Shown: piece after piece, positions 24,642 to 28,725 of the stretch | Numbering within the stretch: position 1 is the stretch's first letter | Layout: every line of letters starts with the position of its first letter | Virus record (IMG/VR): IMGVR_UViG_2609459795_000003 | Strand: one strand, 5' to 3' | Source of the DNA: a virus | Taxonomy: Duplodnaviria > Heunggongvirae > Uroviricota > Caudoviricetes | Length of the DNA stretch: 29,443 nt | The notes under the pieces: model-generated | The model's database searches: none | What the model saw: only the letters and a program-made list of their open reading frames with translations | What the model was told of the DNA's origin: nothing | Made by a program: the position numbers and the translations under genes

Positions 24642-25031
24642 TCAGGCGGCTGCACCCGCCGTTTTCTCGTACTTACTGATAGTGATCTCGACCTTCCCTT
24701 CCGGGATAACCGGTCCCCACTCCACCAGCATTCTTTTCACCTGACTGTCGTCTTCCCACACACCCGCGTGGGTCAGGGCGTCAAACAGCGCCTTGTTATA
24801 GTTGTCCAGATCGCGGATCCGGTTATCCGGTGGAAACAACACGATCTCCACTGCAGCAGGTGCCGACGTTGGTTTCGGCAGACGACGTAACTGCTCAACT
24901 ATTGCTGCGCACGCCGCGCTCTGGAATTTTCGCCCCGCCGTGCTTATCAGGCTCTTACCAGCAAACGCCCCTTTGTTGGGGTGTCGCCAGTACGTGTTCA
25001 CGCTGGGCGGAAAAGGCAGAATAAGCTTCAT
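24642..25031 (-). CDS. rusA: Holliday junction resolvase RusA
   Basis: 129-aa ORF beginning MKLILPFPPSVNTYW..., the characteristic RusA N-terminus; typical nin-region location. Confidence 0.8.
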   Translation of the reverse strand: MKLILPFPPSVNTYWRHPNKGAFAGKSLISTAGRKFQSAACAAIVEQLRRLPKPTSAPAAVEIVLFPPDNRIRDLDNYNKALFDALTHAGVWEDDSQVKRMLVEWGPVIPEGKVEITISKYEKTAGAAA

Positions 25032-25387
25032 ACTTTCAGGCCCCTCTCATGTAACCAGTGGGCTGCACGCAGCCTGGCGTTTTCCTCACCGGCAAGCAGT
25101 GAGCGGATAATCCCGACCGCCTCGCTGTCGTCGTCCTTCACCGCGGTATGAAGCGTTATCCCCCGGGCCACGCCACGCTTTATCGTGATGACGCCTTTTT
25201 TCTCCAGAGCACGAAGATGCTCCACCGCTGCATTCACCGAACGGTATCCCAGCATGGTTGCCACCTCCTGATTGGTTGGTGGGAAGCCACGTTCTTTCTG
25301 ATAAGAAATCAGCATATCCAGCACCTGCTGCTGGCATTGAGTTAACGTCGTCATTAAGCCCCCACGTAATTCCCTGACAGATACCAC
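25028..25387 (-). CDS. LexA-like N-terminal DNA-binding domain protein lacking the S24 peptidase domain
   Basis: 119-aa ORF (probable start MTTLTQ at about 25354). Residues MTTLTQCQQQVLDMLISYQKERGFPPTNQEVATMLGYRSVNAAVEHLRALEKKGVITIKRGVARGITL closely parallel the LexA DNA-binding domain; no Ser/Lys peptidase region follows. Confidence 0.55.
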   Translation of the reverse strand: MVSVRELRGGLMTTLTQCQQQVLDMLISYQKERGFPPTNQEVATMLGYRSVNAAVEHLRALEKKGVITIKRGVARGITLHTAVKDDDSEAVGIIRSLLAGEENARLRAAHWLHERGLKV

Positions 25388-25848
25388 TCTTCACCCGATG
25401 CAGCGCGCTTGCTGCTTTTCCGTAAGCACCGCTCACGACGCGCCAGAAAATTGTTTCGTTCTGGCTGGGAGTGGCTTTCACGGAATGCCGCCATCCACAC
25501 GGTTGCAGCACGACGGTATAAGCCCCTGGACTCCAGTTCTTCCGCCTGGCGGGTCAGGCACAAAATCACCCGGGGATCGTTAGTGCCGACATAGAAATTA
25601 CGCACAGGTCTGGTTTCACGAACTGGTTGTGGTTTCGGCTCCTGCGCTCTCTCAGTCAGGCGCGGGAAATGTCTGCGTGTATCTCCTTCACAACGGTGAG
25701 CCACACGTCCACTCTGACGTAACTTGCTTGCTGACTGCAGAACGCGCTGCCGTGAGTAACCAGCAAAAGCATCCGCAATGTCTCCGGAAGTACACCCCGG
25801 ATGGGCTTCAATGAATTTCTGAACGTCATTTAACAGACTCATGATCAC
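25354..25848 (-). CDS. PerC-like transcriptional regulator (putative)
   Basis: 164-aa ORF; C-terminal segment AEELESRGLYRRAATVWMAAF resembles the conserved PerC/Pch motif as I recall it; probable start is the ATG at about 25842. Confidence 0.4.
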   Translation of the reverse strand: MIMSLLNDVQKFIEAHPGCTSGDIADAFAGYSRQRVLQSASKLRQSGRVAHRCEGDTRRHFPRLTERAQEPKPQPVRETRPVRNFYVGTNDPRVILCLTRQAEELESRGLYRRAATVWMAAFRESHSQPERNNFLARRERCLRKSSKRAASGEEWYLSGNYVGA

Positions 25849-26786
25849 CCCCTGAATCCTGCCGGGATCTGGCTGTAGTCCACATTGTCGTAACTGGATT
25901 TGAAGTACGGGTCTTCGCGTTTTTCGGTGTACGTGCTTACGGACGGCGATAAGCGCAGGGAAAGCTCATCCCATTTTTCCCGCAGCTTCGACGGGCTGAG
26001 CACGTTACGGCACCAGAACGGATCGCGGCTGACGCGGCTGTACATCTCGCAGATTTGTTTGTGAGTACGACCATCCTGCACACACATCAGGCGAATTTCG
26101 TTTGCCCAGGCTGTCCAGTTCGGTTCTTTGGGACGAACCACCTCGCCGTCACATTCGGCAGCCTGCTCGTACAGGGCGATGATTTTTTTCCAGAGCCACT
26201 GTGCGCAGGTCAAATCATCCTGCGTCCCCCACTGGCGCTTTTTAGGGCTGAATACAACCGCATCAGGATGGCGAGTTAAAAAATCCTGTTCAGCCGTCTG
26301 CGTGTCCGGTTGCGAAGCGTCCGGACGAGAAGTTTTTTTATCTGACGGATCATGTTTTGATTTTACTGACGGATCCCCGCCAGATTCTGACGGGTGAAAA
26401 CCCGCTTTTTTGCCAGATTTCGACGCATCAAATTTTGACGGGTCAGATTTTGATGCGTCAGATTTTGACGGGTCAGAATCTGACAGTTGAGAAAAAGCCG
26501 CAGCCTGAAGCTTCGCAACGTTAAGCTGATAAACATTCGACGCATTGCGGTTACCCTGGCGACGCGCCTTACGCGTTAACCAGCCTTCTGCTTCCAGCCG
26601 TGCGATAGCCGTTCTGACGGTACTCATCCCCGCGCCAATCTGGCGGGCAATGGTTTCAATTGATGGCCAGCACACACCTTCGTCATTACTGAAATCAGCC
26701 AGGCGTGCCATAATTGCCACGCTGGATAATTTCATGCCTGACGCTGCGCAACCATCCCATACATAGCCGGTTAATTTAGTGCTCAT
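25845..26786 (-). CDS. Replication initiator (lambda O-like replisome organiser) with internal iterons
   Basis: 313-aa ORF; N-terminal wHTH-like domain, central repetitive linker (DPSKSDASKSDPSKFDASKS) encoded by 15-bp DNA repeats, distinct C-terminal domain; sits after the Cro/CII-like genes like lambda O. Confidence 0.6.
   Translation of the reverse strand: MSTKLTGYVWDGCAASGMKLSSVAIMARLADFSNDEGVCWPSIETIARQIGAGMSTVRTAIARLEAEGWLTRKARRQGNRNASNVYQLNVAKLQAAAFSQLSDSDPSKSDASKSDPSKFDASKSGKKAGFHPSESGGDPSVKSKHDPSDKKTSRPDASQPDTQTAEQDFLTRHPDAVVFSPKKRQWGTQDDLTCAQWLWKKIIALYEQAAECDGEVVRPKEPNWTAWANEIRLMCVQDGRTHKQICEMYSRVSRDPFWCRNVLSPSKLREKWDELSLRLSPSVSTYTEKREDPYFKSSYDNVDYSQIPAGFRG
26341..26490. repeat. 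Iteron array (candidate phage replication origin) inside the initiator gene
   Basis: About 8 copies of a ~15-bp unit (consensus near TCAGATTTTGACGGG); four consecutive copies at exact 15-bp spacing 26435-26490; an AT-richer stretch on the 3' side (26325-26370). Confidence 0.6.
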
Positions 26787-26795
26787 GACCGACCT

Positions 26796-27134
26796 CTATT
26801 TCCCTGAATTTACGACGAAACTTTTCGAGCGGACTGAAGCATTCATGCTCATAGCCTTCGCGGAGGTAGATAACCCGTTGTGTTTCCGGCTCCCAACGAA
26901 TGACTCTGACGGGTACTCCGTAGTGATCTTTGAACCAGCGGTTAACTTGTCGCAAAGGACTGTCTCCTTTTGCCGGTTAAAATCACCCACAGCCCACTCT
27001 GCAAAGCTGTGGGTTACAATTACCCTGCCACCTGGTACATTTACTGCATAGCAATACTCCACCTTCGCTTTTCCACCCGGTACAGGAAGCGCAATCAGTT
27101 GCGAGCGACGGTAGTGTGTTGTTAAACTATTCAT
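26796..27134 (-). CDS. Hypothetical protein with apparent frame discontinuity (possible frameshifted gene or two overlapping small genes)
   Basis: 112-aa ORF whose C-terminal third is low-complexity, while an alternative frame over 26776-26955 encodes a convincing 59-residue peptide (...[58 protein letters not shown]) with only a TTG start preceded by AAGGAG. Confidence 0.3.
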
Positions 27135-27682
27135 GCGTTAGTTTCTCCACAGTCACGACACGCCACGGCGCCCGGAGCTGCACACTCGCGGGCGTCATTA
27201 CTTTCTGAAATGCAAAAAATTTTGTAGACCAGTGCTGCATGCTCCTGCAGCTTCGAAATTGAGAGGTACAGCTCGTCGTTAATTGCTGTCTTCTCATGCG
27301 GTTCCACTACACCGTCTTCAATTGCTGAACGAATCTGTTTTGAATAACTGCCGATCTGTTCAATGACCTCCAGCAGGCGTTGGTTGATATCGGCGTTGTC
27401 CACATCCTCGACATCAGGAAGAGACACAAAGACGCCATTTGCAGACTGCGCCACAGCGTCAGCAATGAAGTGAGTTCCACCAGCACGTTGCAAAATCATT
27501 GCCCATCCCAGCGGGAAAATCTGATCGCCATCGGCACGAAGGCGGTTAAATAATGCGTTCTCTGTTACATCCAGCCAGTCAGCAGCTTCAGCGTAACCCC
27601 CCGGCAACGCTGCGATAGTTTTTCTGACAGCTTTCACGTACCACTCAGGCTGTTTTTCTACTTTCCAGTGATGCTTACCCAC
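27131..27682 (-). CDS. CII-like early regulatory protein (putative)
   Basis: 183-aa ORF immediately downstream of the Cro-like gene and upstream of the replication gene; family assignment by position and vague recollection only. Confidence 0.35.
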
Positions 27683-27935
27683 GGTTCACCTCCTGTTCCT
27701 GTGGTTTAAACCCATTCTGGTTTTGGCTAGATTGAAAACGTGCCGGATAAAGAATCTGCATTTCGCTGACTTCACCCTTAAAAAAATTGGCTAAACGTTC
27801 TGCAAGCTCGATAGATGGAATCTGCTCCAGCCTCTCAATACGACTCAACGTCGCTGGATTGACTTGAACACCCGCAGCAACATGCTGCAAAGTGAAACCA
27901 TGCGCCTTACGCACATTTCGTAATAGTGATTGCAT
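27675..27935 (-). CDS. Cro-like HTH repressor
   Basis: 86-aa ORF divergent from the CI-like gene; HTH-type segment (GFTLQHVAAGVQVNPATLSRIE); SD GGAGG 5 nt before the ATG. Confidence 0.6.
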   Translation of the reverse strand: MQSLLRNVRKAHGFTLQHVAAGVQVNPATLSRIERLEQIPSIELAERLANFFKGEVSEMQILYPARFQSSQNQNGFKPQEQEVNRG

Positions 27936-27945
27936 ATAACCTCCA

Positions 27946-28032
27946 AATATTGCGCGTTATGCATGTTATTTCACGCAATTATTTTGCGCAAGTTGATTTG
28001 CTTATCACGCAATAAAGAAATGTAATAAACGC
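27946..28032. promoter_or_regulatory. Immunity-region operator/promoter segment (OR-like) between cro-like and cI-like genes
   Basis: 97-bp divergent intergenic region with repeated CACGCAAT / TTGCGCAA-type motifs and a plus-strand -35 TTGCTT (27998-28003), 17-nt spacer, -10 TGTAAT (28021-28026) ending 6 nt before the cI ATG. Confidence 0.45.
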
Positions 28033-28725
28033 ATGAACATAGGAAACCGAGTCAGACAACTTCGCCAAGCGAAGAACATGAAAATCGCCGATCTCGCTGA
28101 AGCAATAGGAGTAGATGCGGCGAACATCTCGCGCTTAGAAACGGGTAAGCAAAAACAATTTACCGAACAAACACTGAGTAATATTGCCAAGAGCTTAGGT
28201 GTTGATATTGCTGATCTCTTTACCTCTGCCCACAAAAGTAATACTGTATATAAAAACAGTAATAATGAGGATGTTGCGCAGGTGAAGGATGTGTTCCGTA
28301 TTGAAATGCTGGATATCAGTGCCAGTGCGGGAAATGGCCTTATCCAAGGCGGTGATGTCATTGATGTGATTCATGCCATCGAATACAGAACTGATAATGC
28401 TGTATCAATGTTCGGCGGACGACCAGCCAATCACATCAAAGTTATCAACGTTCGTGGGGACAGTATGTGTCCAACCATTGAGCCAGGAGATCTCATCTTC
28501 GTTGATGTCAGCATCAATCAGTTTGATGGTGATGGTATATATGTCTTTGGTTTTGATGACAAAATATACGTTAAAAGACTTCAAATGATTCCTGACAAAC
28601 TGCTGGTGATTTCTGATAACCAGATTTACCGTGAATGGGGAATTACTAGCGAAAACGAACACCGATTCATGGTCTTTGGAAAGGTCTTAATCAGTCAGTC
28701 GCAAACCCTTAAGAGACATAATTAA
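28033..28725 (+). CDS. CI-type prophage repressor (HTH plus S24 LexA-like peptidase domain)
   Basis: 230-aa ORF; N-terminal HTH (RVRQLRQAKNMKIADLAEAIGVDAANISRLETGK), C-terminal autocleavage domain with GDSM (catalytic Ser) and VKRL (Lys); divergent from the cro-like gene. Confidence 0.85.
   Translation: MNIGNRVRQLRQAKNMKIADLAEAIGVDAANISRLETGKQKQFTEQTLSNIAKSLGVDIADLFTSAHKSNTVYKNSNNEDVAQVKDVFRIEMLDISASAGNGLIQGGDVIDVIHAIEYRTDNAVSMFGGRPANHIKVINVRGDSMCPTIEPGDLIFVDVSINQFDGDGIYVFGFDDKIYVKRLQMIPDKLLVISDNQIYREWGITSENEHRFMVFGKVLISQSQTLKRHN

Follow-up and report, generated by a model that had tools for sequence, protein, structure and literature searches.

Investigation of the region between the CII-like regulator gene ymfL and the replication initiator gene in an IMG/VR virus record of the class Caudoviricetes (IMGVR_UViG_2609459795_000003) revealed two intact, partly overlapping genes. 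The whole stretch of 29,443 nucleotides (nt) is referred to here as the window, and ymfL, ymfM, the DUF4222 gene and the replication gene all lie on its minus strand. The two genes are ymfM, an orthologue of the YmfM/SfiC gene of prophage e14, encoding 112 amino acids (aa), and a gene encoding a 59-aa protein with the domain DUF4222, the frame of which is -1 relative to that of ymfM. These two genes share 160 nt, and it is very probable that the ymfM frame, which ends beside the start of the replication gene, is kept open across the DUF4222 gene by selection; it would provide a link to translation of the replication gene. The initial annotation had described a frame discontinuity between the CII-like and the replication genes; comparison of homologs revealed a 112-aa frame that is open from end to end and a second gene that mostly starts with ATG, and there is therefore no discontinuity but only dual coding by two intact genes.

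The comparison was based on an e14-type sample of 79 near-identical IMG/VR loci, comprising 51 distinct DNA sequences, and on 38 species-level loci from Klebsiella-, Enterobacter-, Citrobacter-, Kosakonia-, Kluyvera-, Atlantibacter- and Phytobacter-type genomes. Regarding the 59-aa open reading frame (ORF), which had been noticed as an alternative frame encoding a well-formed peptide, the translation matches the Pfam family PF13973 with 66.1 bits against a cut-off of 27, residues 2-53 aligning with profile positions 3-52 of 53; it thus belongs to DUF4222 by a domain-covering score above the gathering threshold, with a start codon and a ribosome-binding site of its own. As reported initially, the frame contains neither ATG nor GTG, and the TTG at 26953-26955, with AAGGAG 8 nt upstream, is its sole start codon. 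Across 40 distinct sequences the start column contains ATG (35), GTG (2) and TTG (3) and nothing else, with TTG confined to the E. coli/Shigella lineage. In other genera, relatives use this same start position, where most of them have ATG; among these is the homolog in Klebsiella phage KpF5, which has ATG at the exact position of the TTG in the window, and a Shine-Dalgarno-like motif is present 5' of the DUF4222 start in 36 of 38 related loci.

In the overlap, the ratio of nonsynonymous to synonymous substitution rates (dN/dS) of the DUF4222 frame is 0.10, and 13 of the 15 sites that vary among e14-type sequences are at the third position of DUF4222 codons. The protein was modelled by AlphaFold2 as a small beta-barrel with a predicted local distance difference test score (pLDDT) of 83. 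The full-length Pfam match, the start column, the dN/dS of 0.10 and the confident AlphaFold2 model all point to a normal, independent gene, the product of which is a putative small Tudor/SH3-like regulator of the RgdR family; a sequence search of PDB chains with the profiles of both families, YmfM and DUF4222, gave nothing below E = 0.3. The sequence GTTAAC at 26941-26946, to which the initial annotation had drawn attention, is indeed present and provides codons 4-5 (Val-Asn) of the 59-aa ORF, GTT-AAC or CTT-AAC being the normal codon pair at this position across relatives. The ORF had also been said to end exactly at the start of the replication gene, which is not the case, as its TAA lies 11 nt inside that gene. 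A hairpin is possible in the window between AAAGGA (26970-26965) and UCCUUU (26959-26954), and such a structure (26970-26954) would keep the Shine-Dalgarno motif and the DUF4222 start hidden until the pairing was opened by a ribosome translating ymfM; this pairing was not evident in other lineages.

The ATG-initiated 112-aa ORF was likewise found as first described, including its low-complexity last third, which is rich in Ser and Thr and for which AlphaFold2 gave a pLDDT below 50 (residues 67-112). The apparent degeneration of this frame arises because the ymfM tail is the +1 reading of the DUF4222 gene. Purifying selection on both products, as might mark an overprinted pair, was not found in the overlap (dN/dS of 0.10 for the DUF4222 frame vs. 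1.8 for the ymfM frame), and only the openness and the end points of the ymfM frame are conserved. The YmfM tail is thus a Ser/Thr-rich passenger that is predicted to be disordered, while the amino-acid constraint sits in the DUF4222 frame.

Both ORFs, of 112 and 59 aa and with the TTG start, are intact in 79 of 79 e14-type loci, and the ymfM frame is open across 52-54 DUF4222 codons in all 38 species-level loci, where it follows three different types of N-terminal domain. When the synonymous codons of each DUF4222 gene were resampled according to local codon usage, the chance of an open +1 frame was 0.02-0.20 per locus (mean 0.077). The frame is also open in two lineages in which DUF4222 is much more diverged (L184 and L186; chance 0.05 and 0.03). 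At Val, Leu and Ile codons followed by A or G, forms ending in C and T alternate and purine-ending forms, which would make TAA, TAG or TGA in the ymfM frame, never occur; at those followed by C or T, purine-ending forms are frequent. Parsimony on the tree assigned 17 transitions and no transversions to the critical columns vs. 4 transitions and 13 transversions to the non-critical ones (Fisher p = 5e-6). The codon supplying the ymfM stop is NTA in 39 of 40 sequences, although this is a rare codon, and the stop lies 9 nt before the replication ATG in nearly all loci; in the window, the ymfM TAG is at this distance upstream and in the same frame as the replication gene, and the stops of both ymfM and the DUF4222 gene adjoin the replication-gene ATG. 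Regarding synonymous change, dS was not reduced in the overlap (1.4 in the DUF4222 frame vs. 0.6-0.75 in the ymfM N-terminal domain), and the extra constraint in the overlap is limited to stop avoidance. Both frames are therefore maintained beyond chance (38 of 38 loci, 79 of 79 loci and two further clades, with a chance of 0.01-0.2 per lineage), and the pattern of codon usage argues that selection keeps stops out of the +1 frame of the DUF4222 gene.

In the two further clades, the Providencia-type loci (L127 and L131-L136) and a third clade (L138-L175), the +1 frame is present as a separate ORF of 55-62 codons, which spans +7 to about +190 relative to the DUF4222 ATG and hence the whole DUF4222 gene. 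In both clades the small gene upstream extends 8-10 nt into the DUF4222 gene and ends there in a TGA that overlaps the ATG of the +1 frame (AATGA), and in the third clade the TGA of the +1 ORF in turn overlaps the ATG of the downstream gene. Purine-ending codons occupy none of 56 critical sites of this separate ORF vs. 48 of 112 non-critical sites. The encoded peptides are unlike the E. coli tail and contain a hydrophobic stretch (e.g., MKTQIILIGCIWISVVFVFASYVM...). DUF4222 genes of the RgdR type, which have another gene neighborhood and served as controls, contain 4-6 stops in the +1 frame; openness is thus a property of this locus and not of the DUF4222 family, and these controls together with the synonymous resampling rule out that it is intrinsic to DUF4222 coding sequences. 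The gene calls for L127 omit the +1-frame ORF.

Regarding the part of ymfM that lies outside the overlap, the first ~60 codons have a dN/dS of 0.25-0.40, and 13 of the 21 sites that vary in this part among e14-type sequences are at codon position 3. The TGA stop of ymfL (27133-27131) overlaps the ymfM ATG in an ATGA junction. Three divergent versions of the N-terminal domain, with the common pattern MNSL...R..Q(L/F)...P..G...(F/V).Y, occupy the same position in different phages, and stand-alone versions were detected, with 78 aa in Entomohabitans, directly 5' of the replication gene, and 76 aa in a Salmonella remnant, and also as the family phrog_20047. The dN/dS, the third-position polymorphism, the ATGA link to ymfL and the stand-alone versions all argue that this domain is real. 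It was modelled by AlphaFold2 with three strands and two helices at a pLDDT of 58-77, a moderate confidence that is too low for a fold search.

The coding sequence of the ymfM N-terminal domain also contains a perfect 11-bp hairpin, ACCCACAGCUU...GGGCUGUGGGU, followed by GAUUUUAA (26985-27014, minus strand). The 101-nt region around it has a folding z-score of -3.0, and the hairpin is too U-poor to count as a terminator. On the opposite strand, a cis-antisense small RNA of ~70-116 nt, ECS003, has been reported in E. coli K-12 (PMC3175480), where it faces the ribosome-binding site of ymfM and its junction with ymfL. The position of ECS003 is analogous to that of lambda oop RNA. In the window the corresponding region, ~27085-27210 on the plus strand, contains a GC-rich hairpin at 27167-27196 followed by a U-rich stretch; this hairpin could be the terminator of an ECS003 counterpart and is listed here as a candidate. 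No Rfam family matching the ECS003-like region was found.

The explanation favored here would begin with inactivation of the CI-like repressor, after which ymfL, ymfM, the DUF4222 gene and the replication gene would be read from the early rightward operon. Selection on the ymfM tail would act on unbroken translation up to the replication start and not on a particular peptide, and translation of the replication gene would be coupled to that of ymfL and ymfM by termination-reinitiation, independently of the more weakly, TTG-initiated DUF4222 gene. Several points weigh against this explanation. The sequences compared are related and the statistics are not fully independent, a problem that parsimony and the three diverged clades lessen and do not remove. 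In the overlap the dN/dS of the ymfM frame is 1.8 and the amino-acid sequence of the tail is not conserved, and the character of the tail differs by clade, being hydrophilic here and hydrophobic in Providencia-type loci; this lack of conservation and difference in character make a function of the tail at the protein level doubtful. Coupling, moreover, is deduced solely from the gene geometry, and translation of both frames is predicted from the DNA sequence.

The arrangement in the other clades suggests a broader form of the same explanation, in which the +1 frame may be a translated relay ORF that offers ribosomes a path from the upstream small gene to the start codon of the replication gene, selection acting solely to keep this path unbroken; this relay may be fused to ymfM in the Enterobacteriaceae and form a separate ORF, with an ATG overlapping the upstream stop, in other clades. 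A related possibility is that the filamentation ascribed to SfiC may be due wholly or partly to the nested DUF4222 protein. Taken together, these two proposals are tentative and are considered rather less probable than their opposite.

The strongest rival to selection on uninterrupted translation is that the +1 frame encodes a peptide with a function of its own, whether as the C-terminal part of YmfM or, in other clades, as a small separate protein, which would be required for division inhibition or another host-directed activity. This would fit the conservation of the ORF in all clades, the ATGA start overlap in both clades with a separate ORF and the additional stop overlap in the third clade, and overprinted proteins are typically disordered and fast-evolving. 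The dN/dS of 1.8, the pLDDT below 50 and the change from a Ser/Thr-rich tail here to a hydrophobic stretch in Providencia-type loci speak against it, and selection on a particular tail peptide is less likely than selection on uninterrupted +1 translation; a functional disordered tail is unlikely, yet a live rival.

A second rival holds that the 52-codon extension of ymfM is accidental read-through, left open by ancestry and chance, and that only the DUF4222 gene and the ~60-aa YmfM matter. The dN/dS of the tail with its absence of amino-acid conservation, the predicted disorder, the existence of versions that consist of the N-terminal domain only and the omission of the extension by the Prokaryotic Genome Annotation Pipeline (PGAP) would all be expected from it. 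However, three diverged clades have an open frame in each of their loci at a chance of ~0.08 per lineage, the critical codons change synonymously and never to a purine, the stop position is conserved through rare NTA codons, and the RgdR-type controls have numerous stops in the +1 frame, which makes accidental read-through markedly improbable as compared with selection for openness.

Programmed -1 frameshifting near AAGGAG, which would fuse the YmfM N-terminal domain to DUF4222 and corresponds to the recoding event considered in the initial annotation, is hardly plausible. It would be in keeping with the -1 offset of the DUF4222 frame, with the A-rich CAAAAGG just upstream of the TTG in the window and with sporadic in-frame fusions of the two parts in databases (P0031, P0051, P0060 and P0063, the last with 14 cluster members), proteins of 102-119 aa that result from a 1-nt change. 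A conserved slippery heptamer (X_XXY_YYZ) is, however, absent in 37 of 38 loci, K-12 reads CAGAAGG instead of CAAAAGG, in 11 loci a stop closes the DUF4222 frame 0-9 codons upstream of its start, which leaves a permissive window of that length, and a canonical start codon and Shine-Dalgarno motif are conserved at the start position. The fusions were also considered as relics of an ancestral single gene and rejected as such, since each of P0031, P0051, P0060 and P0063 has a different junction; they appear to be natural or assembly-derived variants, as expected of sporadic indels or assembly errors, and if real they would be ready-made fusion mutants.

Disruption of one ancestral gene by an indel near GTTAAC and a sequencing error in the window, both raised initially on the first impression of a frame change, can be dismissed, as the arrangement is identical in 79 of 79 e14-type loci, is matched in thousands of E. 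coli genomes and in phages SfII and SfIV, recurs as a two-frame layout in all 38 loci from other species, with a normal codon pair at the suspected site, and has no continuous-frame homolog or single-frame family apart from the rare one-off fusions. Among the readings first proposed, that of two nested small genes came closest: two genes are present, but they are not fully nested, the overlap being confined to 160 nt.

Overlapping phage genes are already known, and the locus adds another example and not a new kind. In lambda Rz/Rz1, a longer gene contains a second one that is read out of frame from a ribosome-binding site of its own, with conservation of both frames. The pair in the window is likewise an out-of-frame overlap in a lambdoid phage with both frames conserved; in contrast, Rz1 is fully embedded and the functions of Rz and Rz1, which act in the same process, are conserved and known, whereas the overlap in the window is partial and one of its frames is without amino-acid conservation. 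Programmed -1 frameshifting occurs in dnaX and in lambda G/GT, which share with the window the -1 offset of the frames and a Shine-Dalgarno-like sequence near the junction; unlike these, the window lacks a conserved slippery heptamer, and its downstream frame has its own start and is closed just upstream. Termination-reinitiation at ATGA-type junctions is an established means of translational coupling in phage and bacterial operons. The ymfL/ymfM ATGA, the ymfM stop 9 nt before the replication ATG and the third-clade ORF with ATGA at both ends resemble such junctions, but the link proposed here would be an ORF laid over another gene, a use that we infer from its position.

Regarding known relatives, e14 ymfM (b1148) has the same neighbors as the gene in the window (ymfK/cI, ymfT/cro, ymfL and the replication gene) and the same nested ORF; in K-12 e14 the replication gene is fused and deleted (ymfN/oweE), whereas in the window it is intact. 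The ymfM gene has been named SfiC, an SOS-inducible division inhibitor reported to block formation of the FtsZ ring when expressed, on the basis of a ymfM 'open reading frame' cloned in pBAD24 and of a ymfM deletion (Ansari et al., bioRxiv 10.1101/2020.11.19.390815). The cloned ymfM DNA carries the internal Shine-Dalgarno motif, the TTG and 53 of the 59 DUF4222 codons. As the clone contains and the deletion removes almost the whole DUF4222 gene, attribution of the phenotype needs a frame-by-frame re-test. In the preprint, term searches retrieved nothing on frames, overlapping genes or mutants with stop codons, and no paper in the literature searched pairs ymfM with ribosome profiling or discusses the overlap. 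The YmfM N-terminal domain, which would be the part that blocks Z-ring formation, is the more economical candidate for the division block, the product responsible being formally ambiguous.

The only characterized DUF4222 protein is RgdR (ECs1581) of prophage CP-933C in enterohemorrhagic E. coli, a 99-aa regulator of type III secretion and motility that activates the LEE1 promoter (LEE, locus of enterocyte effacement) and represses motility (PMC3378721, PMC10877973). RgdR resembles the 59-aa protein in its Pfam domain, its small size and its origin from a prophage, and a profile search with the family alignment retrieved an RgdR-like representative with the RGD motif (P0287). RgdR differs in having an RGD motif (residues 20-22), a C-terminal extension and another gene neighborhood; the 59-aa protein has neither the motif nor the extension, and the sequence features of the RgdR-type subfamily were thus not found in it.

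The interest of the locus lies in the deep conservation of a frame that is open and unconstrained in sequence, in its contradictory annotations and in the ambiguity over the product behind a published phenotype. It is a clean natural example of a frame conserved for openness while its peptide drifts, and could serve as a test case for whether overlapping ORFs are employed by phages in coupling replication-gene translation to that of upstream genes.

Regarding its identity, this is the early-right region of an e14/SfII-type lambdoid prophage (Table 1). Among 5,426 complete E. coli genomes, 2,700 contain a match to the 551-nt region, one match (strain AMSHJX01) being 100% identical, and Shigella phages SfII and SfIV have 97.5% identity to it. 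YmfM is identical to K-12 b1148, recorded under the name 'cell division inhibitor YmfM', at 106 of 112 residues (95%) and matches phrog_1170 over positions 1-112 of 112 (E = 7e-67); both this orthology and its slot between ymfL and the replication gene place it in the YmfM/SfiC family (phrog_1170). The 59-aa product gives a full-length match to phrog_1343, and PHROGs thus carries both families, while NCBIfam has no model for either YmfM or the DUF4222 protein.

Table 1. Features of the early region of the window and their coordinates.
Feature	Position	Strand	Details
CI-like repressor gene	28033-28725	+ (divergent)	230 aa
Cro-like gene	27935-27675	-	86 aa
ymfL, CII-like regulator gene	27131..27682	-	183 aa; Pfam Phage_CP76, E = 1.5e-13; RefSeq name ymfL
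GGAG, Shine-Dalgarno motif of ymfM	27145..27148	-	10 nt upstream of ymfM ATG; read from sequence
ymfM, orthologue of e14 YmfM/SfiC	26796..27134	-	112 aa; ATG 27134-27132, TAG 26798-26796
ymfM non-overlapped part, conserved N-terminal domain of ~60 aa	26956..27134	-	Evidence: dN/dS, polymorphism, AlphaFold2, stand-alone versions
AAGGAG, Shine-Dalgarno motif of DUF4222 gene	26964..26969	-	8 nt upstream of TTG
Dual-coding stretch, 160 nt	26796..26955	-	ymfM residues 61-112 and DUF4222 codons 1-53 in -1 frame
DUF4222 gene	26776..26955	-	59 aa; TTG 26955-26953, TAA 26778-26776
Replication initiator gene, O-like	25845..26786	-	313 aa; ATG 26786-26784; Pfam HTH_36 and DnaD_N

The annotation of this DNA differs between records. 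The 112-aa frame is annotated and the 59-aa frame is not in the reference K-12 and phage SfII records, and NC_000913.3 (E. coli K-12 MG1655) is without a gene for the nested DUF4222 ORF at 1,204,001-1,204,180 (L198:3002-3181). PGAP annotates only the 59-aa DUF4222 gene (WP_071791755.1), leaving the 175 nt after ymfL blank, and in PGAP-annotated K-12 assemblies DUF4222 is present as WP_001250269.1 and ymfM is absent. A conserved protein-coding gene (DUF4222) is thus missing from the K-12 reference record and ymfM from the PGAP-annotated records inspected. The two principal annotations are in contradiction over one and the same E. coli DNA, and the evidence presented here indicates that both genes are real. 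A further ORF of 90 aa on the antisense strand (26779-27051, +), which is a coding sequence (CDS) in phage vB_EcoS-733R5, is open in only 26 of 40 relatives and is not maintained, and this CDS call is probably spurious.

No match was found in an Rfam scan of 26500-28100, and a promoter and terminator scan of 26600-27300 gave nothing convincing on the coding strand. Regarding the replication gene, its counterpart in SfII is annotated as O protein or primosomal protein. A PerC-family regulator gene and then a small ORF are present 3' of it (25354-25848 and 25028-25387, minus strand), the small ORF being labelled as a LexA-family regulator by RefSeq in an identical E. coli record; prophage regulators of the PerC type are known to activate LEE in pathogenic E. 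coli. The replication gene itself contains 15-nt direct repeats (26337-26488), five CAGATTTTGACGGGT-like copies with 15-nt spacing and related copies upstream, which read as DPSKSDASKSDPSKFDASKS in the protein and resemble the iteron-type origin inside lambda O.

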